Virus record (IMG/VR): IMGVR_UViG_3300017613_002395
Source of the DNA: a virus
Length of the DNA stretch: 64,000 bases
Strand: one strand, 5' to 3'
Part shown: positions 3,571-28,352 of the stretch, in pieces
Position numbering within the stretch: the first letter of the stretch is position 1
Layout: every line of letters begins with the position of its first letter
The notes under the pieces: generated by a model
Told to the model about the DNA's origin: nothing
Databases searched by the model: none
The model's input: the letters and a program-made list of their open reading frames with translations, nothing else
Position numbers and translations under genes: made by a program

Positions 3571-5118
3571 ATGGAGTTAAAACCGGAACTGGTAGATGCA
3601 GCAGAGAAAGAGATTCGACGACGTTCTGAAAATGATCCCCTGCTGTTTCTGCGTAATCTAAGAATAGCATCGGCCCAGGGGCCACAGTTGTTTGATTCGT
3701 GCATTGCGGATTTTCAACTGAAGACCTTCGAGAAGCTGATGCCGTCTCTGGCAGCCGTCCGTCTCGGGAGGATGCCGCCGATCCGTCGATTTTGGATTGA
3801 GCGGACAAAAAAGGCATCTAAAGACGCAGATATTGCGGCTGCCCTTTTGTGGCTGACCGCTTTTCCTACCCGACCTCTTCTGGTCCAGGTCTGCGCAGCC
3901 AACCAAAAGCAGGCTGGCATTATCAAGCGACGAGCCGCCAATTTGCTGCATTACAATGAGTGGTTGATGGGCCACGTTTTCATCCAGCAGAATCGGATTC
4001 TTAGCGCCGATCGAATGGCCGAGGTGGTCATCGAATCCACCGACGCAACAGGAGGCGGGTCACATGGGGACACCCCGGATGTGCTGATTCTCAATGAGCT
4101 GGTCCATGTTGCCCGTTGGCCGGCAATGGAGACGCACATGGCCAACGCTGACGGCGTCCCGAGGGGTGTGGTGGTTGTTTGTACCAATGCTGGCATCAAG
4201 GGCACCAGGGCCCACGTCTGGCGACGGAACGCGATAGCAAACCCGAAGCGGTGGGCTGTGTACACATTTAGTAAAAAGGCCCCCTGGCTGGCTGATGCTG
4301 ATGTTGAGGAGGCTCGGGTCCGTGATCCGGTGGGGGCCGAATTTGCCAGGTTGTGGAAGGGAATATGGGTTAGTGGTACAGGTGGGGCACTGAACGATGC
4401 CGCAATTGATGCTTGTTTTAGGATGCAGGGCTGTTTGAACGGCCCGGAGCAGGGGTGGCATTATGTAGCTGGTCTTGATCTGGGCGTATCACATGACCAT
4501 TCAGGGGTTGTTGTTTTGGGCGTGAACGTAGACGCGCAGATAATCAGAACCGCTCGATTCAAGGCGTGGATGCCGACCGTCCCGAATGACACCGGACAGC
4601 TTGAAGTTGATCTGATAGATGTAGAAAATGCATGCGAAGAGCTGAGCAGTCTTTTTCACATCGAGTGGTTTGGATATGATCCGGCGGCCGGTGGATCATT
4701 TATGGCCCAGCGTTTGAGGAAGAGAAATGTCCCGATGCGGGAGATGGCATTCTCAAAGCCGTCGAATCTGACCGAGATGGCTAAGGCCCTGGTATCATCG
4801 GTGTCGGATGGAAAGTTGGAGTGTTATGACGATTCAGACGGGCGGCTGAGGCGGGACTTTGGGAAGTTTTCTATCACACACAGACCACCGAGCAATTACA
4901 AGCTCGAAGCCGTTTCTGATGAGTTTGGTCATGCTGATGTGGGCACAGCATTGGTGATAGCTTTACCGGAGGCGATCCGCATGATGGGTGGCTGGGCCAG
5001 ATTTGGGGAGGGTGATGTCATAGCTAACAACGATGATGCTCCATTGAGCGATGCCGAGGTAGCAGCCATGCCACAGGAGCTGGCTGATATCTACAATTCG
5101 GGGGACGGCGGTTGCTGA
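3571..5118 (+). CDS. terL: terminase large subunit
   Basis: 515 aa. Walker-A-like WIERTKKASKD, Walker-B-like DVLILNE, RNaseH-like nuclease half (AGLDLGVSHDHSGVVVLG ... DEFGHADVGTALVIAL). Confidence 0.8.
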   Translation: MELKPELVDAAEKEIRRRSENDPLLFLRNLRIASAQGPQLFDSCIADFQLKTFEKLMPSLAAVRLGRMPPIRRFWIERTKKASKDADIAAALLWLTAFPTRPLLVQVCAANQKQAGIIKRRAANLLHYNEWLMGHVFIQQNRILSADRMAEVVIESTDATGGGSHGDTPDVLILNELVHVARWPAMETHMANADGVPRGVVVVCTNAGIKGTRAHVWRRNAIANPKRWAVYTFSKKAPWLADADVEEARVRDPVGAEFARLWKGIWVSGTGGALNDAAIDACFRMQGCLNGPEQGWHYVAGLDLGVSHDHSGVVVLGVNVDAQIIRTARFKAWMPTVPNDTGQLEVDLIDVENACEELSSLFHIEWFGYDPAAGGSFMAQRLRKRNVPMREMAFSKPSNLTEMAKALVSSVSDGKLECYDDSDGRLRRDFGKFSITHRPPSNYKLEAVSDEFGHADVGTALVIALPEAIRMMGGWARFGEGDVIANNDDAPLSDAEVAAMPQELADIYNSGDGGC

Positions 5119-15992: not shown

Positions 15993-16368
15993 GCTGCGAT
16001 ACTGGTGGCGGTTTCGTCGGGAGTCACGTCGATTTGCAGCCGATTTTGAGCAGGCCACCAGATGGAAACGAGAAGCGCTTCGATGCTTGCAGGATCTGAG
16101 TCGCAGCACAAAGCGACTGGAGCAGTTGTTGGCACGGGTGCAGGAAGAAGCCGAAGACGTTGCTGAGAAGTTAGCCGACACGGATAAGCTGGTGAAGAGC
16201 TATGATTACGCCGAGGAGGCGTTGAATAACAAGCTCTTGGTGATGGAAGAGGCCCTCAAAGACATGACGTTGCTGAGGGAAATGACCCGAGAGCAGGTCA
16301 AGGCTGATATAGCTGTACATGCAGCTAGACAAGAGGCCCTGGCGCACACTGAGAGGAGGGACGAATGA
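15982..16368 (+). CDS. coiled-coil protein
   Basis: Internal ATG of ORF 15937..16368, chosen to minimise overlap. Start uncertain. Confidence 0.35.
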   Translation: MVNKLRYWWRFRRESRRFAADFEQATRWKREALRCLQDLSRSTKRLEQLLARVQEEAEDVAEKLADTDKLVKSYDYAEEALNNKLLVMEEALKDMTLLREMTREQVKADIAVHAARQEALAHTERRDE

Positions 16369-17966
16369 GTGTTTTGAAAAAGGCTTTTGGCTCAAGTCGG
16401 GCTTTGTCAGTTGTGGCACATGATCGATCCTACCGAATCAAGGCCGGCGGTGTGGGCAGCACATTGACCGCACCCACAAACTTCGGTGGGATGACTGATT
16501 GGGCTAATCAGCGTGGGTATTCGGAGAAGTACGGCCTATTTCATTCGTGGTTGTACTCGGCAATCAATGCTGTTGCTTCCGAAGCGGCTGGCCAGCCCGT
16601 CTGTGTTGGTCAGATGAAGGGCAAGGAGACAAAAAAGAAGGAACAGCAGGAGAAGTTGGTCATTGTGAAATCGAAGATGACCACCACGGCAAGGAGTAAG
16701 ACCGCCAACCAGGAGTTGGAGGTGCTTGGGGATTCGCCCCTCCGGGGTGTCTTGGAGAATCCCAATCCCATTCAGGGCAGATGGCAGTTTGTTTATGCAG
16801 CTGTTACTAATCTGTGTTTGACGGGATGGTCATACATTGTCTATGGCAAGACCAAGGAGGGGTTGGAGTTGTATGCTCTGCCAACGACCTGGGTGACCCC
16901 ATGCCACGAAAAGGGCGCCTTTGCCCAATTCAAAGTATCTAATCCCAAGCGACGAGCAGTGGGGGCTGAACCCGTTGTGTTGGGCAGGGACAACGTGGGG
17001 TTCATGCACTTGCCCAATCCCAGCGATCCGCTGAGTGCCATGGCCCCGGCATCGGCTGAGATGATGGCCATTCGGATCAATGATCATATCTGGACTAGCC
17101 GTGAACAGTTTTTCAGCAACGGGATTTTCCCTTCGGTGATCGTGACCATTGGCAAAGAGCCACACCCCGAAGTCGCAGGGGGTATCCGGCCCAGGCTGAC
17201 GGGTTCGCAGCGGAGGCAGGTAAAAGGGGCCATCAGCAAGGTGATGGGAGGTGTGGCCAACTATGGCAACCCAGCGATCGTGGATGGTTTGATCGAGAAG
17301 ATTGAACGGCTGAGCATGACGCAGAATGAGATGGGATGGGACAAGTCTGAGGAGTCAGTCAAACGGTCGATCCTCTCTGCCTATGGTGTTCATCCCTACA
17401 TTTTGAATGAGGCGCTGAACGTTGGTGGATATGCACAGGCCACAAACATTGAGAAGCGTTTTCACAAACGGGTCAACACGTATTTGGACATGCTTGGCAA
17501 CGTAGTGACAAATTTGGTGGGCAATGCTGAGGAGGACGAGGAAAGCAGTCTGTTGGTTTGGTGGGAGAAGTGTGAGAGTCAAGATCCTCAACAGCGAAAC
17601 TCGATGCTTCGATTTGCCAGGCAGAACAATGACATCAGCCAGAACGAATTTCGGGCTGAGTTGGGGTTTGCTCCTGATGAAGATTGCAACGAGTCGGTAA
17701 TTGACAAATCATCCATTCCTGGCATTGTTAATCTGCTTGGCCAGGTGGGGCAGGGGAGCATCACGCCGGAGCAGGCAAGAGCCGTAATGGAGGGCCTTGG
17801 CATTCCGTCCGATATGGCCAAGAAGATTGCGGGCAAGGCTAAGGAGGTAGCAGCCGTGCAGCAGGCGACTGGTGCATTGCAGGAGGCGACCGAGGAGCTT
17901 CGGCAGACACCGGAGGAGGAAGTTGAGAAGTTGGCGAATCTGATATTGAAGGCCGCCCAAAGCTGA
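16365..17966 (+). CDS. portal protein
   Basis: 533 aa. Size and position fit (upstream of MuF, protease and capsid), with an HK97-type portal-like central region. Confidence 0.7.
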   Translation: MSVLKKAFGSSRALSVVAHDRSYRIKAGGVGSTLTAPTNFGGMTDWANQRGYSEKYGLFHSWLYSAINAVASEAAGQPVCVGQMKGKETKKKEQQEKLVIVKSKMTTTARSKTANQELEVLGDSPLRGVLENPNPIQGRWQFVYAAVTNLCLTGWSYIVYGKTKEGLELYALPTTWVTPCHEKGAFAQFKVSNPKRRAVGAEPVVLGRDNVGFMHLPNPSDPLSAMAPASAEMMAIRINDHIWTSREQFFSNGIFPSVIVTIGKEPHPEVAGGIRPRLTGSQRRQVKGAISKVMGGVANYGNPAIVDGLIEKIERLSMTQNEMGWDKSEESVKRSILSAYGVHPYILNEALNVGGYAQATNIEKRFHKRVNTYLDMLGNVVTNLVGNAEEDEESSLLVWWEKCESQDPQQRNSMLRFARQNNDISQNEFRAELGFAPDEDCNESVIDKSSIPGIVNLLGQVGQGSITPEQARAVMEGLGIPSDMAKKIAGKAKEVAAVQQATGALQEATEELRQTPEEEVEKLANLILKAAQS

Positions 17967-17978
17967 TAAGGATTTGAT

Positions 17979-19061
17979 ATGCCCGTGATCGAAGACAACA
18001 AGCTGGAAGTCACTTGTGGCCTGGTTACGGTTGCAAAAGATCTGGTGAAGATGAAGCGGGATGTGATGCTGGTCCAGATGCGACGAGCCGTTGCCCGGAG
18101 TGTGCATTTGAAGCAGGTCAACAAGTTGGAGGGGAATTTGGTTGATGTGATTGCCCCAGTGATTGAGCAGCAGGTAAAAACGATAGCAAGCGGGTTGGCT
18201 GAATTGGATGGGCCAGAATCCAAATCTGTGACATTGGAAAAGTCACACGCCGATACGGCTCATGCCCTGGTCCAGCACTCGTTTGATGCTAAGGGGGAGA
18301 AGGACAAGCTGGTGGATGAGATGCTGCCCGTCTTGGCGGCACAGATGGCTGAGTCGGCCATTGCCCATTTTTTGCAGATGGGTGTTGTTATTCGGAGGAA
18401 GAAATCAGTATCGGAGAAGTTCAATCCACATCATGGACCAGACGGACGGTTTTCATCGGGATCGGGTAGTGGGGGTGGTCATTATGCTGATACATCTCAG
18501 GGCGTTGATACACAAACTGCTAGTGCGTTTGCGGCAGCTACTGCAAAGACAGGTGAGGCGTTCGAGGCCACTTGTTACAGAGGCACGGGTTTGTCCGGAG
18601 CAGAAGCTGCTCGGACCCGCATCCCAAGTCAGTATGCACAGGGGGAGTACTGGTCGCCATTTCCGGAGGTGGCATCAACGTATGGCCCTGACGTTTTGTC
18701 GCAGAAGGTGACGCTTCAGAATCCAAGGGTGTTTAGATTGCCAGGTAAGAGACCCTATTTTGCTGAATTGCAGAGAGAGTTCGGGACAAAAAACCCAGTG
18801 GAGATTACACAGAAGCTGAAGAGTGATGGTCATGATGGTTTGATTGTGCAGAATGTTCCGGTTAATAGACGCTCTCCTGATGGGGAGGGCGTTTCCATGG
18901 GGGATTCGGTTGAAGTTATTTTGTTCAACAAGACAAAGAGCTTTGAGAAGTTCAATCCATATCACGGACCAGATGGACGGTTTTCATCGGGATCAGGTTC
19001 TGGTGCTCACATGGCCCCAGATACAGGTGGTGGAGCAGGTGGCGGTTCTGGGGGAGCATAA
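17979..19061 (+). CDS. polyvalent virion protein: N-terminal helical domain, linker, ~150-aa possible ART-like effector domain, linker
   Basis: Two copies of the EKFNP(H/Y)HGPDGRFSSGSGSG linker. The middle domain has CYRGTG ... ASTYG ... SVEVILF, a weak R-S-E pattern. Confidence 0.55.
   Translation: MPVIEDNKLEVTCGLVTVAKDLVKMKRDVMLVQMRRAVARSVHLKQVNKLEGNLVDVIAPVIEQQVKTIASGLAELDGPESKSVTLEKSHADTAHALVQHSFDAKGEKDKLVDEMLPVLAAQMAESAIAHFLQMGVVIRRKKSVSEKFNPHHGPDGRFSSGSGSGGGHYADTSQGVDTQTASAFAAATAKTGEAFEATCYRGTGLSGAEAARTRIPSQYAQGEYWSPFPEVASTYGPDVLSQKVTLQNPRVFRLPGKRPYFAELQREFGTKNPVEITQKLKSDGHDGLIVQNVPVNRRSPDGEGVSMGDSVEVILFNKTKSFEKFNPYHGPDGRFSSGSGSGAHMAPDTGGGAGGGSGGA
18405..18479 (+). repeat. linker repeat L1 (SVSEKFNPHHGPDGRFSSGSGSGGG)
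   Basis: DNA- and protein-level repeat shared with L2-L5. Confidence 0.85.
18939..19058 (+). repeat. linker repeat L2 (SFEKFNPYHGPDGRFSSGSGSGAHMAPDTGGGAGGGSGGA)
   Basis: Forms the last 40 codons of the ORF, immediately before the TAA stop. Confidence 0.85.
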
Positions 19062-19082
19062 ACACCACATCCAGGATGGAGG

Positions 19083-19250
19083 ATGGTTGGTGTCTTTGCA
19101 AATTTGGTTGATGAGCTTATGGATATTGAGCTGATGGCCCAACAGGATGATGTGAGTCAGGAAGATTGGGGATGGCAGGTGGATGCACTGTTTCAAAAAT
19201 ACGCTCTATTGTTGGTTGGGGTAGATCCCCCAGCCCAATCATTGATGTGA
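19083..19250 (+). CDS. small acidic ORF (55 aa) between the two polyvalent genes
   Basis: Same frame as 17979..19061, after its TAA. The peptide MVGVFANLVDELMDIELMAQQDDVSQEDWGWQVDALFQKY... looks protein-like. Below the ORF-track length cut-off. Confidence 0.3.
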   Translation: MVGVFANLVDELMDIELMAQQDDVSQEDWGWQVDALFQKYALLLVGVDPPAQSLM

Positions 19251-19258
19251 GACTGCCT

Positions 19259-22009
19259 ATGCCCACTACAGCGTCAGAATGGCTGGCTGAGCATCCGGAG
19301 GATGTTGGAGCCCTAACGGAGATGCTCGCAGGGCTGGATGGCTTTCCCATTCAGGTGTGGACGGAGATGCCTGAAGACATGAAGCGGATCATAGCTGAGC
19401 AATTAGTGGAATCGTTCGCTCAGCCGTACTGGGATGATATCTCTGCTGTGACTGCTGGTCATGCGGAAGAATATTTGGTGAAGGGACTTCAAGAAGGGTG
19501 GTCCATCCGCAGGATTGCCAGCACGATGGCTGAGAGCTTTCAGGGTGGGACGAGCAAATATGCAATGATGCGAGCCACCAGAATAGCCCGCACAGAAAGC
19601 GGACATGCGCTGAATGCAGCCCGCAAGGCTCCCATAGACCAATTGATGGCTGAATTGGGCCCACAGGTGCCCATGCAGCCCGTGTGGCTGAGTGTGTTGG
19701 GGAACACGACGAGGGATTCCCATGCCAACCTGGATGGTGTGCCGGCCGACGAAAATGGTGAGTGGGAATTGGGTGGTGTTAAGATCCCATGGCCAGGACA
19801 CATCAGTTTACCAGCTTCAGAGCGGTGCAATTGTTTTCCAGCCGGAACTTTAGTTGAAGGCGACTTTGTCGGGTCGCAGCGTGCGTGGTACGAGGGGGAG
19901 TTTGCCAAAATCGTGACCGCGTCTGGAAGACGTCTCACCGTGACCAAAAATCACCCAATAGTAACCTCTAAGGGACTTGTTGCTGCAAGCATGTTGCAGC
20001 CAGGTGATAAGGTCCTTGCCTACAATTCCAAGATCAATAGCAGGCATTGTTCCCCCGTTGGTGTGGACAAATTTGCCATTGATACATTTGCGAGTCACCT
20101 TCTTTCGAGCGGCAATCAAAAACAGGACAAACCAGCCCCTATCGAGCAAGTATGCCAAGCGTTCTTTTCCGGGTTTATTTCCAGTTTGGGGACGGGGTTG
20201 GTTGAAATCCGCGACACTCAGATGGACGATTTCTATGGCGACGGAAAATTCATCAAGGGCAAGATCGAGATTGTAAGGGCCAACTGGAAATTGCTGCAAG
20301 ACGGGAAATTTGGCCAATTTGAGAAATGTGGCGATTCGATCTTCGTCCTTGAACCTGCCGAGTTGTCGGTGAAATTTGGTGATGGCTCTAGCAGATTTTG
20401 TGGCGTCGGAGTCTCGGGAGCCGCGACGTGCTTTCCATGCTGCACCGAGAGTCTTTTGGATGTACGAGGGCGATTTGAAATTACGCCATCGGGCTCGTTG
20501 GCTGTCGGAGTAGCTGCGGATTTTAATACCAGCCTCAAGGAATCGGCGGCGAAGGAGGGGGCGGGAGTGTCCAGTTTCCTTCGAGATTCGCTGCAGCGAT
20601 ACCCCGGAGTTGTATTGTTCGATGAGATCACCGAGGTTCAAAATTTCTATGCGTCTCATTATGTGTATGATCTCCAATCGAGTTATGGGTTAATTGTTGC
20701 GTTTGATCCTGATTCTACAGGGTTGGGGGGCATTGTCAATAGTAACTGCCAATGCACCATTGTTACCCAGTTTGGTATGCAGGAGGGTGATGCCCAGCAG
20801 TTGATCCAGCAGTACTTCGACCGCAAGCTGGATTATGAAGGGGGCAAATCCGTATCGGAGAAGTTCAATCCCTACCACGGACCAGACGGACGGTTTTCGT
20901 CAGGATCAGGTGGTGGAGCCCACATGGCTCCAGATACAGGAGGTGGAGCAGGTGGGGGTGGGGGTGCTGGGATTGGTTCTTTCAAAGTGGGCACGAAAAA
21001 CAGCAAGAGCGAGCGGAGGCTGCATAAGACGTGTGCTAAGTTTTCAAGAGATGATCAGATGCTTGATGAGGACTTTAACACACCAGCTAGAAGGATAAAC
21101 GAGCAGGCTGCTCAGGCTAATGGCGTACGTGAACGGTTTAAGAAGCCGAAGGCTGATTTTGAGATTCGGGTAGTAAGAACAAAGGATGTTACACCGAGCC
21201 AGGATTACGATGATTGGATGGATGATCACGCTAAAAATATGGCTGGTTTGTTGAGAAAATTCAACGGCCCACAGGCTACCGACATGATGGAGGGAGAGGT
21301 TATTAATGTGGTCACGCCCATAGCAATCGAGAAGGGCGGAAAGCTCATCGATGGGAACCATAGGCACGCAGCACACGTCATCAATGGGGAAGATCATATT
21401 GTGGCTATTGTTGCTTTGGAAAGGCCCCAAGCTACTGGAAAAGTGGTAAATATGACGGAGGCTCTGCAGGCTTTGAGGCATATGAAGTCGGCTGAGTTAC
21501 TGGAGAAGTTCAATCCACATCATGGATCAGATGGACGGTTTTCGTCAGGATCAGGTGGTGGCGCTCACATGGCCCCAGATACAGGAGGTGGAGCAGGTGG
21601 GTCAGCGGCTGGTGGGGGGAGCACACGCAGTTCCAGAGCCAAGCGAACACACAAACCAAGCACAAAAGAAAAGCAGCAGAGAGCGGAATCTGAGCAGGCC
21701 CGATTGGCAAAACTGATTAGGGGCACAAATACCGACGACAATGATGCTTTCGATGTGTTGGGATCGGGTTGGGCCGTCGAGGTCAAAACCATAATGGACA
21801 ATAACAACAACAAGATAACGATGCACCCGAAAAGTCGACGGAGGAAGGAATCTTATGCAGAGGAGCATGGGGTAACAAAACACACGGTTGTGATTGATGT
21901 GAGGGGCAGCAAGCGTAGTTATTACCACAAGGCAGGAGTCGGGGCTTATCGTTTGTCGTCTATGAGCAGGATTTCTGTTTCTGAAATCAGAGAAAGGCTG
22001 GGGGCATGA
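19259..22009 (+). CDS. MuF/SPP1-gp7-family head morphogenesis protein (intein-containing) fused to a ParB-like nuclease domain and a PD-(D/E)XK domain
   Basis: MuF-like RTESGHALNAAR...TTRDSHANLDGV...ERCN|intein|CQCT. ParB-like KLIDGNHRHAAHVINGEDHIVAIV. REase-like DAFDVLGSGWAVEVKT. ATG at 19259 is preferred over the TTG at 19166. Confidence 0.8.
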   Translation: MPTTASEWLAEHPEDVGALTEMLAGLDGFPIQVWTEMPEDMKRIIAEQLVESFAQPYWDDISAVTAGHAEEYLVKGLQEGWSIRRIASTMAESFQGGTSKYAMMRATRIARTESGHALNAARKAPIDQLMAELGPQVPMQPVWLSVLGNTTRDSHANLDGVPADENGEWELGGVKIPWPGHISLPASERCNCFPAGTLVEGDFVGSQRAWYEGEFAKIVTASGRRLTVTKNHPIVTSKGLVAASMLQPGDKVLAYNSKINSRHCSPVGVDKFAIDTFASHLLSSGNQKQDKPAPIEQVCQAFFSGFISSLGTGLVEIRDTQMDDFYGDGKFIKGKIEIVRANWKLLQDGKFGQFEKCGDSIFVLEPAELSVKFGDGSSRFCGVGVSGAATCFPCCTESLLDVRGRFEITPSGSLAVGVAADFNTSLKESAAKEGAGVSSFLRDSLQRYPGVVLFDEITEVQNFYASHYVYDLQSSYGLIVAFDPDSTGLGGIVNSNCQCTIVTQFGMQEGDAQQLIQQYFDRKLDYEGGKSVSEKFNPYHGPDGRFSSGSGGGAHMAPDTGGGAGGGGGAGIGSFKVGTKNSKSERRLHKTCAKFSRDDQMLDEDFNTPARRINEQAAQANGVRERFKKPKADFEIRVVRTKDVTPSQDYDDWMDDHAKNMAGLLRKFNGPQATDMMEGEVINVVTPIAIEKGGKLIDGNHRHAAHVINGEDHIVAIVALERPQATGKVVNMTEALQALRHMKSAELLEKFNPHHGSDGRFSSGSGGGAHMAPDTGGGAGGSAAGGGSTRSSRAKRTHKPSTKEKQQRAESEQARLAKLIRGTNTDDNDAFDVLGSGWAVEVKTIMDNNNNKITMHPKSRRRKESYAEEHGVTKHTVVIDVRGSKRSYYHKAGVGAYRLSSMSRISVSEIRERLGA
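19832..20746 (+). mobile_element. intein (305 codons) inserted in the NC(R/Q)CT motif of MuF
   Basis: Cys1 in CFPAGTLVEGD, block B TVTKNHPIVT, blocks F/G HYVYDLQSSYGLIVA...GGIVNSN, and a +1 Cys. Excision gives ERCN-CQCT. Confidence 0.75.
19850..20659 (-). CDS. HTH plus Vsr/DUF559-type PD-(D/E)XK endonuclease (homing endonuclease candidate), antisense within the intein
   Basis: Minus-strand ORF open from 19850 to 20677 (TTG). ATG at 20659 lies 11 nt after GGAGA. Motifs: GVSLQRISKETGHSRPLLRRRF, PVGPYNLDLALDEFSVAIEIVH, ERLAYLLDRGWFVLF. Confidence 0.7.
   Translation of the reverse strand: MRRIEILNLGDLIEQYNSGVSLQRISKETGHSRPLLRRRFLEAGIKIRSYSDSQRARWRNFKSPSYIQKTLGAAWKARRGSRDSDATKSARAITKFHRQLGRFKDEDRIATFLKLAKFPVLQQFPVGPYNLDLALDEFSVAIEIVHLSVADFNQPRPQTGNKPGKERLAYLLDRGWFVLFLIAARKKVTRKCINGKFVHTNGGTMPAIDLGIVGKDLITWLQHACSNKSLRGYYWVIFGHGETSSRRGHDFGKLPLVPRTLRPDKVAFN
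20849..20971 (+). repeat. linker repeat L3 (SVSEKFNPYHGPDGRFSSGSGGGAHMAPDTGGGAGGGGGAG)
   Basis: Separates the MuF domain from the ParB-like domain. Confidence 0.85.
21497..21619 (+). repeat. linker repeat L4 (LLEKFNPHHGSDGRFSSGSGGGAHMAPDTGGGAGGSAAGGG)
   Basis: Separates the ParB-like domain from the PD-(D/E)XK domain. Confidence 0.85.
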
Positions 22010-22278
22010 GTTACTGGCTCGAAGACGAATCTGGTGATTTCCTTGGTGATTTTGCTACAAATCATGGAATCATCACAATGCGGGAGAGAGCTGGCCCATT
22101 GCTGATGGAGTTGCTTGATAATGGGGAATTGCCTGCAAACAAGCTAAGGGGCTTGGGGGATGAGGTGAAGGAATCACCCGAGCTTGTCTACATTTCAGAT
22201 CTTGTCGTGGGAGCTGAAGGATCAGTTTTTATTACGGATGGTTGTGGTAGTGCAGATATGGGAGAACAAGATGTCTAA
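22006..22278 (+). CDS. hypothetical acidic protein
   Basis: ATGA junction. 90 aa. Confidence 0.45.
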   Translation: MSYWLEDESGDFLGDFATNHGIITMRERAGPLLMELLDNGELPANKLRGLGDEVKESPELVYISDLVVGAEGSVFITDGCGSADMGEQDV

Positions 22279-23301: not shown

Positions 23302-23361
23302 GGTAATCTGCAAATAGGTTATATTTGGGATCGTAAGACGTCTAGGCTCTTCGTTGATGCT

Positions 23362-23396
23362 GCGGCGTGTTGTTCCAGGAACACACGTCGCTTTTT
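23362..23396 (+). terminator. intrinsic terminator-like hairpin plus T-run
   Basis: gcggcgtgttgttcc-agg-aacacacgtcgc followed by ttttt. Lies just upstream of RBS GGAG and the ATG at 23411. Confidence 0.5.
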
Positions 23397-23410
23397 ATTG
23401 GAGTCATGAG

Positions 23411-24166
23411 ATGGGAAAGAATGTCACTTTTTACCTGGGACCGGGCGGCACTCACTTGGCGAGTCGTAGCTTGGTGGTCACCCGGATGCGAAGAGCCGGT
23501 GATGATTCAGCTCTGGCGGCTGCATACACAAATGCAGGTATTGTGAACACGACGGAAATACAGACGGTTCCCCTAGCTGATAGCACAATCTATCAGGCTG
23601 TGGGGGTGGATACCTTGGCGGATGGGTCGACGAGTGTGCCCGACGTTTTGAATTTCCACACGGGATCGTTGCAATTTCCTGGTCCCAGATCACAAGACCG
23701 TTTGTCGATCTTGGGCATGGAGGACTTGTCGAGTAGTTCCTCTAGCAGTTCTTCCAGCAGCGTTTCCAGTGGATCTTCCAGTTCCTGGTCGAGCACGAGC
23801 AACAGCTCTAGCCACAGTAGTTCGAGCAGTTCCAGTTCCAGTAGTTCGAGCAGTTCCAGTTCGGTCAGCACGAGTAGCATCAGCACAAGCTCGGTCAGCT
23901 CCAGCTCCAGTTCGATTAGCACAAGCTCGGTCAGCTCCAGTTCGATCAGCACAAGCTCGGTCAGCTCCAGTTCCAGTAGTCCGAGCAGCTCCAGTTCCAG
24001 TAGTTCGAGCAGTGTAAGCTCCAGTAGTTCGAGTAGCTCCAGTTCGATCAGCACAAGCTCGAATAGCTCCAGTTCCAGCAGTGCGAGCAGTTCTAGTTCC
24101 AGCGGCTCAAGCAGCTCCAGTTCCAGCAGTACGAGCAGTGCATCGTCCAGTAGTTGGTCCACCTAA
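23411..24166 (+). CDS. virion-associated protein: ~105-aa N-domain plus ~145-aa Ser-rich tract
   Basis: In-frame ATG after the terminator and GGAG. The C-terminal two thirds are Ser repeats with SSISTSS. Confidence 0.6.
   Translation: MGKNVTFYLGPGGTHLASRSLVVTRMRRAGDDSALAAAYTNAGIVNTTEIQTVPLADSTIYQAVGVDTLADGSTSVPDVLNFHTGSLQFPGPRSQDRLSILGMEDLSSSSSSSSSSSVSSGSSSSWSSTSNSSSHSSSSSSSSSSSSSSSSVSTSSISTSSVSSSSSSISTSSVSSSSISTSSVSSSSSSPSSSSSSSSSSVSSSSSSSSSSISTSSNSSSSSSASSSSSSGSSSSSSSSTSSASSSSWST
23729..24157 (+). repeat. Ser-rich tract S2
   Basis: Shares ~48 nt of near-identity (atcagcacaagctcggtcagctccag...ttcgat.agcacaagc) with S3. Confidence 0.9.
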
Positions 24167-24922: not shown

Positions 24923-26614
24923 ATGCCATTGCCATTGCCAAAACAAGGGGAGGCCAAGGATGCTTTTGTGGCCCGTTGTGTGGCAAGTGATGCAATGGTC
25001 GATGAGTATGGTGACGACAAACAGAGGCTCGCAGTGTGTTTCTCTCAGTGGGAGAGGGCCCAGGAGCAAAAAGATATGTCCGTGAATGATAAGCTGCTCA
25101 AGGTGATTCGGTCTCGGCAGCAGAAGCAAACCGAGTTTGCCTACGGCATTCTGACGGCTGATCGGTACGTCCAGACACTGAGCGACGTTGCTGGTTTTGA
25201 GGTTTGCTATCGTTATGGTTGTCAGGGGCATGTCAGCTTCAATGATGCATTGGAGAAGGCTGCCAAGACCCTGGTCTACAGCAATCCCGACATGGTCTTG
25301 CTTGATAAGGCCAGGGATCAGTACAGCCGACTGTCGGGGGAAAGGGATCTGCCGAAGAACACGTTGATGGTTTTTCGGCATGTGCTTACTACCAGCAGGA
25401 AAGACCGCGATGGGGATGTTCTTCATGCAGATGGCATGGAAACCGACCCGAAGATGCTCCTGCTTTGGCAGCACGTTCACACAATGCCAATCGGTAAAAT
25501 GCTGGCCGAGGTGGATCGGACCAAAGACAAACTGATCCTCGATTCATGCATCATTGACATCAATGATTTGTCCCACGATGCTGCCGTCATGATTGACAAT
25601 GACATGGGCCGCTTTTCGCATGGGTTCCGTGCTTTGGAATTCCAGAAAATCAAAGCCGAGGATGGATCGGATAGTGGCTTTGACATAACGAAGGGCGAGA
25701 TCATGGAGGAGAGCCTGGTATCGGTGCCGGCAAATCCGGATTCTGAAACCGAGCAGGTTCTGCTGTCATTGGTCGAAGGCAAGAAGCTCACAAGCCCGTT
25801 GATGAAAGAAGTAGGGAAAGGTATCCGCGAGAGGTTGCCGGTGACGGTGCCCGTTAAGCTGGATGTCAAGATGACCATCAATGGTCAGGAGGTGGAAGAT
25901 GAGAACAAGTCCGGAGATCGAAAAGAAGAGGGAGGAGGAGAAACAGGCACATCAGAAAAAGCCGATGAGGGTGGTGGAAAAGAAGGCAAGCAAAAGCCAA
26001 AGCCCGAAGACAAGGAAGTGAAATGCCCGAAGTGCGGCAGCACAGACATTGAGGATGGTGTGTGCCAGGACTGTGGTTACAAGATGCCCCCTTCCATTGA
26101 TTCTGGAAAAGATGCCGATGGGCAGGAGAAGGAATCATTTGATTGTGAGTGCCTGGATTGTGGCCATCAGGTGACTTCATCGAAGCACTGCGATGAGTTG
26201 GAGTGCCCTGAATGTGGTGGGGAGATGCGGAGAGCTGAAAGACCCGGTCCTGGCAAAGCCGGCAGGGTCATTTCGGGCACAAACGAGTCGAAGATTCGGG
26301 ATGCCAAAGCTGATATTGATGAGGTGCTGAAGTCGGATCAGCTTGATCGGACGTTGAAGGCCACACTTCGCCAAGCCAGCAGGACACTCGACGCTGTGCT
26401 TGCTTCGTTAGGCACACCAACGCAGAAGGATGAGGGATTGGATGTTGCTGATGTGGCAAACATTGTGTTGCAGAAATTCACAGCTGTTCAAAGGCAGATT
26501 TTGGCCGATGCAATTGGAACCATCCGTGAGGTGGATAAGCAGGAGGCAGAGGCTGCTGCTGTTAATGCATTGATGGGAATCAAATTCAATCCGAATCATG
26601 GGGAAGGCCATTGA
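24923..26614 (+). CDS. prohead protease (HK97 family) fused to a charged region, two zinc ribbons and a scaffold-like C-terminal part
   Basis: VLTTSRKDRDGDVLHADGME...LLWQHVHTMPIGKM (protease core). KCPKCGS...CQDCGY and CECLDCGH...CPECGG (zinc ribbons). Ends in GIKFNPNHGEGH. Confidence 0.7.
   Translation: MPLPLPKQGEAKDAFVARCVASDAMVDEYGDDKQRLAVCFSQWERAQEQKDMSVNDKLLKVIRSRQQKQTEFAYGILTADRYVQTLSDVAGFEVCYRYGCQGHVSFNDALEKAAKTLVYSNPDMVLLDKARDQYSRLSGERDLPKNTLMVFRHVLTTSRKDRDGDVLHADGMETDPKMLLLWQHVHTMPIGKMLAEVDRTKDKLILDSCIIDINDLSHDAAVMIDNDMGRFSHGFRALEFQKIKAEDGSDSGFDITKGEIMEESLVSVPANPDSETEQVLLSLVEGKKLTSPLMKEVGKGIRERLPVTVPVKLDVKMTINGQEVEDENKSGDRKEEGGGETGTSEKADEGGGKEGKQKPKPEDKEVKCPKCGSTDIEDGVCQDCGYKMPPSIDSGKDADGQEKESFDCECLDCGHQVTSSKHCDELECPECGGEMRRAERPGPGKAGRVISGTNESKIRDAKADIDEVLKSDQLDRTLKATLRQASRTLDAVLASLGTPTQKDEGLDVADVANIVLQKFTAVQRQILADAIGTIREVDKQEAEAAAVNALMGIKFNPNHGEGH
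26576..26611 (+). repeat. truncated linker motif L5 (GIKFNPNHGEGH) at the protease C-terminus
   Basis: Same KFNPxHG core as L1-L4. Confidence 0.6.
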
Positions 26615-26711
26615 GATTAGATCTCCCAATCCATTCCCCATCAGGAAAGCGACACGTCGCGGTTTGGTCCGTGATGGTCACAGCGATCGGTCTTAGTTGA
26701 AAGGTTCAAAA

Positions 26712-28352
26712 ATGAAAATGACCGGAGCTCTTAAGAAGTGGCTCGTCGAGAACTGCGACGTGAAGACGGACGCCAGTGATGACGAGTTCAAGAAGGCCGC
26801 CAGCGAGGCACTGATGGACGGCAAGTTGTCGACCGAAAAGTTCGCTGAGTTGTCCAAGGATGAGGCGACTGAGAAGGCAAACGAATTTGCCAAGAAGTTT
26901 GATGTCATTGCCGACAACCTGACCAAGGTTGTTGGTCTCCTGACTCCGAATGAGGAAGAGGAAAAGATCAAGGACGGCGAGAAGAAAACCGAGGAGTCCA
27001 AGGAGAAAAAGATCAAGGACGGCGAGAAGAAAACCGAGGAGTCCAAGGAGAAAAAGACCCCCAGCCGGTTGGCCAAGATGGTTGCCGAGCTTGGTGGCAC
27101 CCCGGTCGAGGTCGACGGCAAGGATATTGATGCAAGGGTCAAGGATGCTTCCGAATCCTACGCCACGACGAAGTCGGCCCTCACCTATCCCGATCGGACC
27201 AAGGGCGGAGGCAGACACCCCCTTGCTGGTCAGCGGGTCCAGGTGCAAGGTGTGGGCATCGACAACTCCAGCGAATTGGACAAGGCCCTGAGTGGTGTAT
27301 GGTCCAAATTCCAAATCCTGTCCATTACACCCCGTATTGCCGGCTCGAAGCGGCGGGCGTGGGAGATGATGACAGACCATGAGAAGGGACTGCTTTGTCA
27401 CTTGGTGGAGAATTGTGACTGGGATGCCAGCACCGATGAGCATGTGAAAACGGTCAGGGGTTATGGTGGTGGAATCAAAGCCCTGATCGATGACTCCACC
27501 TCGGGCGGTCTGGAAGCAGCTCCGATTGTGTTTGACAACGAGGTCATCCAGGCTCCGTTGCTCAATGGTGAGTTGTACCCATTGGTGGATGAGAAGCCCC
27601 TGGACCGTGGCCGACGAATCGAGGGCGTCTCGACAGGCACGGTGACCGGGTCTTGGGGCGGCGTAGACGCATCGGCCATTTCGCTGTTCAATACGGCGTC
27701 CTATGTGGCGGCATTCGACACGACGGTCTACCGTTGGGAAGGTGCTGTGCAGGTGGGCCTGGACTTCCTCAGCGATACGCCCATCGATTTCAACTCTCAC
27801 ATCACGTCCCAATACGGACAGCGGTTGCTGGAGGATCTGGACGACGTGATCGCGGTTGGCAACGGAACAACGCAGCCGCAGGGAGTGATGAATGCTTCCG
27901 GTACAACCAGTGTTGCATTCGGTGGCGCAACGAGTATTGGTGCCTACGAGAGCTTGAGGTTCTCGGTTCACAAGCGGGAGCATACCGCAGGTGTGAAGAA
28001 CACGGCCGTCTTCTGCGGCACGGAGACGTCTTATCAGCGGGCAATTGGGCTGCCCGTTGGTGCGGCGGACAACCGCCGTCTGTTCGACACACAGACTGGA
28101 GCCAATTACGATGGCTACAGCTTTATGCAGCGATCGTACAAGATCAACGAGAGCCTGACAAACTCTCAGATCTTCTACGCAATCCTCGGCCGCTATCGGA
28201 TGTACCGACGCAAGGGCTTCACAGTCCGAACGTCGACCGAGGGCGATACGTTGATGCGTAACAACGAGATGCTGATCGTTGTGATGGCTCGGTATGGTGG
28301 ACAGATGGAGCGTGGTGCCTGTGCAGGAGTGACGACAACGGCTCCTGCCTGA
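26712..28352 (+). CDS. major capsid protein (HK97 fold) with N-terminal delta/scaffold-like domain
   Basis: ~546 aa. Charged coiled-coil N-terminus, then an HK97-like body. Follows the protease and is followed by a strong terminator. Confidence 0.8.
   Translation: MKMTGALKKWLVENCDVKTDASDDEFKKAASEALMDGKLSTEKFAELSKDEATEKANEFAKKFDVIADNLTKVVGLLTPNEEEEKIKDGEKKTEESKEKKIKDGEKKTEESKEKKTPSRLAKMVAELGGTPVEVDGKDIDARVKDASESYATTKSALTYPDRTKGGGRHPLAGQRVQVQGVGIDNSSELDKALSGVWSKFQILSITPRIAGSKRRAWEMMTDHEKGLLCHLVENCDWDASTDEHVKTVRGYGGGIKALIDDSTSGGLEAAPIVFDNEVIQAPLLNGELYPLVDEKPLDRGRRIEGVSTGTVTGSWGGVDASAISLFNTASYVAAFDTTVYRWEGAVQVGLDFLSDTPIDFNSHITSQYGQRLLEDLDDVIAVGNGTTQPQGVMNASGTTSVAFGGATSIGAYESLRFSVHKREHTAGVKNTAVFCGTETSYQRAIGLPVGAADNRRLFDTQTGANYDGYSFMQRSYKINESLTNSQIFYAILGRYRMYRRKGFTVRTSTEGDTLMRNNEMLIVVMARYGGQMERGACAGVTTTAPA
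26964..27053 (+). repeat. perfect 45-nt tandem duplication (KIKDGEKKTEESKEK x2)
   Basis: Units 26964-27008 and 27009-27053 are identical and in frame. Confidence 0.95.

Follow-up and report, generated by a model that had tools for sequence, protein, structure and literature searches.

The 64,000-nt stretch of viral DNA deposited in IMG/VR as IMGVR_UViG_3300017613_002395 (hereafter referred to as the window; all positions are those of the whole stretch) raises the question of why different protein domains should be joined, again and again, by almost the same short peptide. A linker of the sequence EKFNP(H/Y)HG(P/S)DGRFSSGSG connects, in this order, the N-terminus of a MuF head protein, an orphan domain, the MuF core, a domain with a DGNHR motif, and a domain with a predicted PD-(D/E)XK fold. 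From its conservation and its position in many other phages and proviruses, the linker probably is a tag by which toxins and nucleases would be loaded into the capsid and later be cut free. We tentatively compare it to the capsid targeting sequence (CTS) of phage T4, as a leader that may serve both the docking and the processing of head-borne proteins.

Conservation of the linker peptide

A repeat search of the window recovered a single family of four direct repeats, each 115 nt long (18413-18527, 18944-19058, 20857-20971, and 21502-21616). All of them encode the peptide given above, and copies 2-4 continue with (S/G)GAHMAPDTGGGAGG (Table 1). The back-translated core KFNPxHG matches the window five times, at the four linkers and at 26582-26601, where a truncated copy is located, and is absent from 100 dinucleotide-preserving shuffles of the same sequence (expectation 0.00). 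The four complete copies and the truncated one reported in an earlier, sequence-only reading of this DNA are thus confirmed, and a six-frame regular-expression scan detected no further copies in the window.

At the DNA level, copies 2-4 share 87-88% identity with one another and 64-67% with copy 1, and the 60 nt flanking each copy are identical at the random level only (18-43%). Most codon differences between the copies are synonymous. Copies 2 and 3, for example, are separated by 10 synonymous changes and one non-synonymous change over 34 codons, and within the 17-codon core each pair of copies shows 3-5 synonymous versus 0-2 non-synonymous changes. Thus, the peptide is under purifying selection, and the repeats reflect more than a recent duplication. 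In a structural model obtained with AlphaFold2 (AF2), the linker has a predicted local distance difference test score (pLDDT) of about 50-60 and is in effect disordered beside the well-folded third cargo domain, as would be expected of a docking or cleavage peptide.

The high identity of copies 2-4 between random flanks might also indicate a recombination junction that permits the swapping of cassettes, as proposed for the VENN motif in contact-dependent inhibition (CDI) systems, or the linker might be a mere glycine-rich spacer. Exchange at the linker would agree with the very diverse cargo found behind one and the same unit and with two apparent scars: ORF1 terminates in a complete copy, and the prohead protease in the truncated one, which none of its homologues has. 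However, substitutions between the copies are mostly synonymous, and the amino acid motif is kept across phyla in unrelated DNA, so that the constraint must act on the protein. In a spacer, moreover, the K, N, H, G, and F residues would not stay nearly invariant. Recombination or spacing as the function of the linker hence is very unlikely, and recombination is probably a by-product. The earlier proposal that the DNA repeats offer recombination points is plausible as such, but such events are not the main cause of the conservation, because the peptide-level constraint spans bacteria and archaea. The same constraint, together with the recurrence of the peptide at the borders of unrelated cargo (see below), bears out the view that the linker is a selected functional signal and more than a spacer.

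Distribution and variants of the motif

The strict motif KFNPxHGxDGRF occurs in 22 stretches of IMG/VR, at a negligible chance expectation. Its looser form, K[FY]NPxH[D/G/E]xxGRF, was found in at least 120 stretches of IMG/VR and in 99 stretches of GTDB (one genome per species), archaea included. The hosts in GTDB are mostly Alphaproteobacteria, especially Hyphomicrobiaceae and Novosphingobium; others belong to the Clostridia, Bacteroidota, Sphaerochaeta, Acidimicrobiia, Vicinamibacteria, and Nitrosopumilus. A head gene is recognisable at 121 of the 165 motif loci that are at least 6 kb long. The motif is shared from Alphaproteobacteria, Clostridia, and Bacteroidota to proviruses of Nitrososphaera and Nitrosopumilus, and this occurrence in different phyla, together with the mostly synonymous differences between the copies of the window, argues for selection on the peptide rather than on the DNA. 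Searches for the motif in 72,556 plasmids gave no match, the window DNA shows no similarity to GenBank phages, and a comparison of the leader sequence with the PDB returned only chance matches to antibody light chains. No description of the junction motif was found in Pfam, PHROGs, NCBIfam, or the literature searched, and neither the motif family and its breadth nor its placement behind portals and proteases seems to have been described.

The consensus derived from 158 distinct motif-bearing ORFs is (S/T)FxEIxKFNPYH[GD]xxG[RK]F[TSA][ST]xGG. It represents a unit of ~30 residues, centred on K[FY]NPxH[DG]x2-3G[RK]F, in many cases with (A)K[ST]FxEI before it and a Gly/Ser-rich stretch after it. 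In one branch the consensus continues with AxSFTYxPGxSxAHDxAIxREKER. In the branch of the window it continues with (A)(H)MAPDTGGGxGG, which is common to the relatives P0010, P0014, P0017, and P0024 and is present in a looser form in P0009 and P0066. Five residues of the motif (K, N, H, G, and F) are nearly invariant. In contrast, a local profile search found genuine copies in which the proline is replaced (KYNHNHD, KYNMNHG, KYNANHD, KFNRNHD) and in which the spacing before G[RK]F varies.

This variability bears on the resemblance of NPxH to the autocleavage loop N/PTH of FlhB, YscU, and EscU, which is cut between Asn and Pro. A self-cleaving module of this kind would act independently of the types of carrier and protease, and N, P, and H are indeed present in most copies. 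However, genuine copies have H, M, A, R, I, Q, or K in place of Pro, the distance to GRF is not fixed, and the cousin motifs described below (QPRDxxGRW, HDQSxHGRG) lack N-P. Cleavage at NPTH also requires a strained loop in a folded domain, whereas no folded context is predicted around the motif. Since Pro is not invariant and the region is modelled as disordered, a loop of the FlhB/EscU type was rejected; the shared N-P-x-H string looks like a chance resemblance, and self-cleavage is extremely improbable.

One copy of the motif contains an in-frame stop (KFNPNHDE, stop, GRF). It lies in a portal gene of an Acidimicrobiaceae metagenome-assembled genome (L073, 896-1477, minus strand). Read-through was considered and rejected for this copy, as the portal gene also contains a frameshift and the locus represents a decaying prophage.

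Carriers and cargo

In the protein segments on either side of the motif, capsid-internal proteins prevail upstream (78 segments, each at least 80 aa long), and classic domains of polymorphic toxins and effectors are found downstream (146 segments). Upstream, Phage_portal (39 segments) and Portal_Mu (5) are accompanied by XkdF-type prohead proteases (7), one S78 protease, and MuF (3), and a few of the remaining segments contain effector domains according to Pfam, namely NUDIX, 2H/Acb1-like phosphoesterase, or ADP-ribosyltransferase (ART) domains. The downstream segments include toxins and nucleases (CdiA-CT RNase A, Zeta toxin, WHH, colicin DNase, and colicin E5), a Gln deamidase, DddA-like and MafB19 deaminases, and other enzymes such as ART-PolyVal, exotoxin-type ART, CHAP, glucosaminidase, a lethal-factor-like peptidase, and TopoIB. 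Individual loci show various combinations of these parts. A PARP-like domain, the motif, and TopoIB follow one another in L015; the motif, an XkdF protease, the motif again, and a Zeta toxin in L023; and a 2H phosphoesterase, the motif, and an ART in L021. In L001, the motif is inserted between the portal and a 270-aa extension, and two more copies reside in the protease-scaffold protein. Directly behind a protease domain it is found in L001, L017, and L023. The expectation that the motif should mark domain boundaries also in homologues is borne out by its recurrence at borders of unrelated cargo in many unrelated phages.

The motif is not restricted to fusions. Many loci contain small consecutive genes, each with a unit that starts 10-30 residues from the initial Met. 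The 37 relatives of the window proteins have on average 2.6 copies at a median spacing of 228 aa. Their first copy lies at most 45 aa from the N-terminus in 29 cases, and at least 119 aa follow the last copy in all of them. Most chains of the Firmicutes type contain an embedded XkdF protease domain and the motif at every junction, an architecture that is, by analogy, the layout of self-processing viral polyproteins.

Among the proteins adjoining the leader are 2H phosphoesterases that match the profile of Acb1 (L017, 1-1935; L021, 4828-6243; P0030 and P0035), which counteracts the cyclic-oligonucleotide-based anti-phage signalling system (CBASS). NUDIX and GNAT domains also occur next to the leader. 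With these three types of cargo, the packaged set would include likely anti-defence enzymes besides toxins.

Cultured strains of Novosphingobium share a conserved chromosomal gene pair (L059, 4663-6218; L068, L071, L074, and L086). Its first gene encodes a protein of ~375 aa, in which the leader follows after about 45 residues, and its second an immunity-like ORF of ~144 aa, which is duplicated in L074. In L059, the pair adjoins genes for an FGGY kinase and a metallo-beta-lactamase. Novosphingobium sp. JCM 18896, N. aerophilum 4Y4, N. anseongense PS1R-30, and Novosphingobium sp. APW14 (L059, L068, L071, and L086) were the only cultured strains in which the motif was encountered, in each case at the head of a toxin-like gene on the chromosome.

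Cousin motifs in front of the same cargo

Homologues of the third cargo domain of the window (cargo 3), picked by that domain alone, either are proteins of their own or make up the C-terminus of a portal-sized or MuF protein. In 33 of 49 such proteins inspected, a junction peptide is recognisable 52-98 aa upstream of the D..EVK core, and several of the remainder have degenerate forms. Class B ([YW][DN]PxQPRDxxGRW) accounts for 19 of these 33 peptides, class C (KHLPGxHDQSxHGRGGGG) for six, and class D (GSGNYGHAGRPGxxGGS) for four; the other four belong to class A or A2 (NPxH or NPYRD). A further junction peptide, FCPTGxGGGxDPSCSP, was observed in the same position before the same cargo; these other junction peptides come from the relatives P0047-P0100 and from L124, L135, L136, and L139.

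Those phages in which several genes were seen have one motif class each: class C is present in three consecutive genes of L124/L135 (L124, 8001-13355), and class A is used throughout the window. This uniformity agrees with a recognising partner that the phage itself encodes. In P0019, the AKTFDEIMK... frame that holds class-A copies elsewhere is occupied by a class-B copy, and therefore the classes look like variants of one device. Class A and its cousins (classes B and C, and class D in the form GSGNxGHxGRPGxxGGS) could even constitute a general, as yet unrecognised cargo code of HK97-like tailed phages, archaeal proviruses, and perhaps gene transfer agents. The ~30-residue leader would then be necessary and sufficient for loading any protein, wherever encoded, and would also mark the cut site, and the classes would be lineage dialects matched to the head machinery. 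A code of such generality is conceivable but doubtful.

A proposed leader for loading and release

From the conservation of the peptide, its position, its carriers, and its cargo we infer a mechanism with recognition in trans, docking, and cleavage. The leader would mark the N-terminal border of each cargo carried in the head. The cargo cassettes, each a leader with an enzyme domain, are either fused behind proteins of the procapsid interior (portal, MuF, or prohead protease) or encoded by separate small genes. During head assembly, the leader may be recognised by a trans-acting head component, for which the HK97-type prohead protease or a scaffold bearing this protease would be the likeliest candidates, and this recognition would bring free cargo into the procapsid. 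Cleavage in or beside the leader would part the domains of polyproteins from one another and from their carrier, and at infection the freed domains could exit together with the DNA. Cargo on the portal, of which 12 copies are fixed at the vertex, or on MuF or the protease is already inside the procapsid but would be deliverable only if it is cut off. Stand-alone cargo, in turn, needs a loading signal. Because one leader is found on fused and free cargo alike, and because the CTS of T4 does both jobs, we favour a CTS-like leader for docking and processing, albeit tentatively.

Each of the two functions might also suffice alone. If the motif were purely a cleavage site, it would be cut by a prohead protease of the HK97/XkdF type or by a zincin-like peptidase in the same chain, and loading would be left to the carrier. 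The presence of the motif at every junction of polyproteins with an embedded XkdF protease, its position directly behind the protease domain in the three loci mentioned above, and its modelled disorder are in line with this function, and proteolytic processing of polyvalent proteins has already been proposed (Iyer et al., 2017; PMC5512222). Nevertheless, a mere cut site does not explain why stand-alone genes carry the unit just after Met, where cleavage would remove about 10 residues, nor how stand-alone proteins and the chromosomal proteins of Novosphingobium would enter a capsid. We consider cleavage as the sole function unlikely.

Conversely, the motif might be a pure docking peptide similar to those of encapsulins, which would attach to the inner capsid, scaffold, or portal surface without ever being cleaved, leaving the polyproteins intact. 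The N-terminal position in stand-alone cargo would agree with this role, as would the long conserved core with its alternating aromatic residues, the loci whose cargo is encoded away from head genes, and the use of a single class by each phage of which several genes were seen. However, the commonest cargo is fused to portal, MuF, or protease and, being inside already, needs no tag. Portal-tethered enzymes could not leave the capsid, and a tag in front of each of the 3-4 domains of a single chain would be redundant. Docking without cleavage thus is quite improbable.

Several observations weigh against the CTS-like leader that we favour. According to the six-frame scan, the major capsid protein and the portal of the window lack the motif. 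Capsid precursors of such phages are typically trimmed by the protease, and thus the motif should not be the protease's sole recognition site. The strictly conserved core of 12 residues is long for a protease site. These two points, the capsid protein without the motif and the unusual length of the core, apply equally to a pure cleavage site. Furthermore, an AF2 model of an XkdF protease domain with its downstream leader (12 sequences), meant to reveal docking in cis, reached a pLDDT of only 45, too low to be used, and two copies in the window, at the ends of ORF1 and of the protease, have nothing behind them. No cultured phage with the motif was found among 50,697 GenBank phage records by tblastn with three leader variants; it is present only in MW202897, a phage genome assembled from a metagenome, and in Pro-Nvie1, a provirus of Nitrososphaera. 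The gene pair of Novosphingobium has no phage gene within about 4 kb, which means that another locus would have to provide for loading in trans, unless the signal lacks specificity for capsids. Finally, homologous proteases (42-62% identity) accompany different motif classes: class C occurs with such proteases in L135, L136, and L139, and NPYHD in L142. Related proteases thus coexist with classes A and C, although these classes may be alignable.

How an infection goes in its first minutes is decided by the effectors that phages package, among them toxins, nucleases, and enzymes directed against restriction and CBASS. Beyond the T4-like and giant phages, we know of no account of how proteins are selected for packaging. 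A tag that predicts capsid cargo would make this cargo, including orphan domains, readable directly from metagenomes; the large PD-(D/E)XK-fold family of cargo 3, which lacks a Pfam model, is an example. The tag would render the long-hypothesised encapsidation and release of MuF- and portal-fused toxins directly testable, and would serve phage engineers as a compact means of bringing foreign proteins into capsids of the HK97 type. It would also extend the logic of polymorphic toxins, which combine a conserved junction with a variable toxin, to portal and prohead protease carriers.

Cargo domains of the window

Of the three cargo domains in the window, cargo 3 is the only one with a large family. 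A search of 1.84 billion representative proteins retrieved 854 homologues at E ≤ 1e-3, although no Pfam family model exists. Members of this family (RAKxTHKPST...FDV...EVKT...KITMHP...) typically form the C-terminus of portal or MuF proteins, and the residues D92, E101, and K103 are invariant in 41 sequences. The AF2 model has a pLDDT of 84-98, mostly 93-98 (in blocks of 10 residues), and the secondary structure order H-H-E-E-H-E-E. The top Foldseek matches are Hjc Holliday-junction resolvases (probability 1.0, target TM 0.55-0.64), and further matches are the SPARDA nuclease and HincII; all of these share the PD-(D/E)XK fold. As modelled, cargo 3 is a nuclease-like domain of this fold, in agreement with what had been proposed from the sequence.

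Two other functional assignments were not confirmed. Cargo 1 had been regarded as a possible ADP-ribosyltransferase, but it matches nothing in Pfam or the PDB, and its hhalign probability against 10 ART-PolyVal domains is 0.9%. Its single homologue among 5.8 billion proteins (P0046, 70% identity) is located behind the cousin leader KYDPSQPRVPSGDSRGGQW. Cargo 2 had been called a ParB-like nuclease, and it contains a DGNHR string. No profile supports this function, as no match was obtained in Pfam, NCBIfam, or the PDB even at E ≤ 10, and cargo 2 is almost without homologues in the 1.84 billion representatives (the matches of that search extend over query positions 160-345 only).

ORF1, the MuF core, and its intein

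ORF1 starts directly downstream of the portal gene, as is typical of the MuF/SPP1 gp7 family. As a whole, with its two linker copies, it has no match in Pfam, PHROGs, or NCBIfam. Its first 150 aa, however, match the N-termini of P0009-P0012 (E 7e-21 to 3e-14), and in P0009, P0011, and P0012 this N-terminus continues into the MuF core within the same polypeptide. The N-terminal helical domain of the sequence-only reading hence is no separate cargo but belongs to the N-terminus of MuF. In relatives, cassettes of leader and cargo separate the N-terminal region of MuF from its core, for example TopoIB in P0012. Judged by these alignments, the window has the same arrangement of MuF N-terminus, cargo, and core, divided over two genes.

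The MuF core itself resides in ORF2. Its assignment, made in the sequence-only reading, is upheld by matches to the PHROG head-morphogenesis families (E 1e-20 to 2e-19) and to P0009, which carries PF04233 (phmmer E 1.5e-81); the match to Pfam PF04233 (Phage_Mu_F; E 3.9e-6, 28.0 bits) is just below the cut-off of 29.6. With the MuF core, the DGNHR-motif domain, and the PD-(D/E)XK-fold domain, only the last of which is confidently assigned, ORF2 qualifies as a polyvalent protein. Public gene calls place its start at 19259, and the relative P0017 starts at the equivalent MPSTASEWL. Therefore, ORF2 needs no frameshift. A frameshift between the 55-aa ORF at 19083-19250 and ORF2 was considered and rejected, since in relatives the equivalent MP(T/S)TASEWL is where the MuF core begins. 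This 55-aa ORF has no family match in profile searches, and could be what is left of a cargo, a gene of the immunity type, or an extension of ORF1 by read-through. The second linker, at the end of ORF1, is atypical when compared with the 37 relatives, whose last motif is always followed by the C-terminal residues mentioned above. The placement of the linker copies at domain borders, as originally described, thus stands, but the description had overlooked the cargo-less end of ORF1, the 55-aa ORF, and an intein.

This intein of 305 aa interrupts the MuF core. It has Cys1, a C-terminal Asn, and a +1 Cys, and its excision exactly restores the host sequence SERCNCQC, which is that of the uninterrupted P0009, P0012, and P0017. 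Matches to Hint and intein profiles are weak and remain under the cut-offs (Pfam Intein_splicing, E 1.3e-4; NCBIfam intein_Nterm, E 1.3e-3). The opposite strand of the intein's middle part holds an ORF of 275 aa, which is a candidate homing endonuclease, as judged from its sequence motifs (Table 1). The MuF intein of L022 (3715-4887, plus strand) likewise has an antisense ORF (3919-4806, minus strand); it encodes 296 aa with zinc fingers and a DUF559/Vsr endonuclease domain (E 3.3e-12). From these sequences, both MuF inteins look like carriers of antisense homing endonucleases, with the sense frame of the intein still open, which is an unusual arrangement.

Prohead protease and capsid protein

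The HK97-type prohead protease exceeds the cut-off of Pfam Peptidase_S78 (24.8 bits versus 21), and its match to TIGR01543 (E 5.5e-6) is below the cut-off. Two zinc-ribbon or rubredoxin-like inserts (aa 355-440) were observed between the protease domain and the scaffold-like tail. The truncated linker at its C-terminus, which in the sequence-only reading had been said to fit a role in cleavage or targeting, is real, but KFNPNHGEGH is absent from all 18 protease-scaffold homologues taken from IMG/VR (42-62% identity), which end in a different conserved tail (..KQYRxLV..), and a role in the mechanism was not upheld. From this comparison, the truncated copy is specific to this lineage and is best read as a scar of recombination or as what remains of a cargo fusion since lost, and the same reading applies to the cargo-less linker 2. 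Both terminal copies fit a turnover of cassettes at the repeats as a secondary effect of the conserved junction.

Two other repetitive sequences were noted in this region. Between the MuF and protease genes, an ORF of 270 aa (23354-24166) consists nearly entirely of serine runs, with repeats of 15 and 24 nt. The N-terminal extension of the major capsid protein contains a 45-nt tandem duplication (26958-27047, 98% exact), with EEKIKDGEKKTEESK twice.

Table 1. Positions of the linker copies and of other features of the window.
Feature	Position	Strand	Remarks
Portal protein	16365..17966	+	Pfam Phage_portal, E 1e-25; motif absent
ORF1, 360 aa	17979..19061	+	MuF N-terminal helical region, linker 1, ~150-aa orphan cargo, linker 2, stop
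Linker copy 1	18414..18515	+	Repeat search, alignment, shuffle test; translation EKFNPHHGPDGRFSSGSGSGGGHYADT
Cargo 1 (~150 aa)	18480..18940	+	Between linkers 1 and 2; one homologue
Linker copy 2	18945..19058	+	Extreme C-terminus of ORF1, cargo absent behind; translation EKFNPYHGPDGRFSSGSGSGAHMAPDTGGGAGGG
55-aa acidic ORF (MVGVFANLVDELMD...)	19083..19250	+	ORF1 frame resumed past TAA; ends 8 nt before MuF core start
ORF2, 916 aa (P0008)	19259..22009	+	MuF core with intein, linker 3, cargo 2, linker 4, cargo 3
Intein within MuF core, 305 aa	19832..20746	+	SERCN/CFPAGTLV...GIVNSN/CQCTIV (slashes, intein borders)
275-aa ORF antisense to intein middle	19850..20677	-	HTH (weak match) plus LDLAL..VAIEI motif
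Linker copy 3	20858..20971	+	Repeat search, alignment, shuffle test; translation EKFNPYHGPDGRFSSGSGGGAHMAPDTGGGAGGG
Cargo 2, 175 aa	20972..21496	+	Behind linker 3; ParB/Srx-like KLIDGNHRHAAH motif
Linker copy 4	21503..21616	+	Repeat search, alignment, shuffle test; translation EKFNPHHGSDGRFSSGSGGGAHMAPDTGGGAGGS
Cargo 3, 129 aa	21620..22006	+	Behind linker 4; predicted PD-(D/E)XK-fold nuclease-like domain (D..EVK)
90-aa ORF	22006..22278		Overlaps ORF2 stop codon
HK97-type prohead protease, 563 aa	24923..26614	+	Peptidase_S78; zinc ribbons, scaffold-like tail
Truncated linker copy KFNPNHGEGH	26582..26611	+	C-terminus of prohead protease
Major capsid protein with long N-terminal extension	26697..28352	+	Pfam Phage_capsid, E 6.6e-14; motif absent

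Comparison with known systems

The concept of such a leader has precedents, as conserved leaders on packaged proteins and conserved junctions in front of toxins are both known. In encapsulins, a short terminal cargo-loading peptide directs diverse enzymes into a shell of the HK97 fold. These peptides differ from the motif described here in their sequence, are usually C-terminal, and are not known to be cleaved or to be placed between domains. Short conserved motifs also stand at the start of the variable toxin domains of CdiA (VENN) and Rhs proteins (PxxxxDPxGL), and the Rhs pre-toxin motif reportedly is an (auto)proteolytic site. The likeness consists in a short conserved junction before a variable toxin domain. 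The sequences and the delivery machines are unrelated. In Rhs proteins, the motif lies within a folded plug of the aspartyl-protease type, whereas the linker of the window is modelled as disordered.

Closer to the window in gene content are the MuF polymorphic toxins, in which a MuF head protein is combined with variable toxin domains and adjoined by a portal gene (Zhang et al., 2012, PMC3482391, in its passages on MuF; Jamet et al., 2017, PMC5576092), and the polyvalent proteins, which contain ART, nuclease, and peptidase domains in one chain and were predicted to be packaged and processed (Iyer et al., 2017; PMC5512222). A term search did not find the junction motif in the papers by Iyer et al. 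(PMC5512222) and Jamet et al. (PMC5576092), nor is it mentioned in those passages of Zhang et al. that deal with MuF, portal, and phage head (PMC3482391). Unlike in these systems as described, the commonest carrier of the motif is the portal, cargo is also inserted inside MuF, and the same leader is found on free genes.

The system most similar in function is the CTS of T4, which consists of 10-19 residues at the N-terminus of internal proteins (IPI-III and Alt) that otherwise are unrelated. As a propeptide, it docks these fast-evolving effectors to the prohead's scaffolding core; the prohead protease then cuts it off, and the internal proteins are delivered with the DNA (PMC9026906, PMC3012670). 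The CTS has been proven experimentally, is confined to N-termini and to T4-like phages, and is cut by gp21. In contrast, the motif described here, known from sequences alone, also lies between domains and behind portal, MuF, and protease, and is accompanied by proteases of the HK97 and XkdF types. What the two have in common is a short conserved leader on unrelated effectors, and the comparison is one of function.

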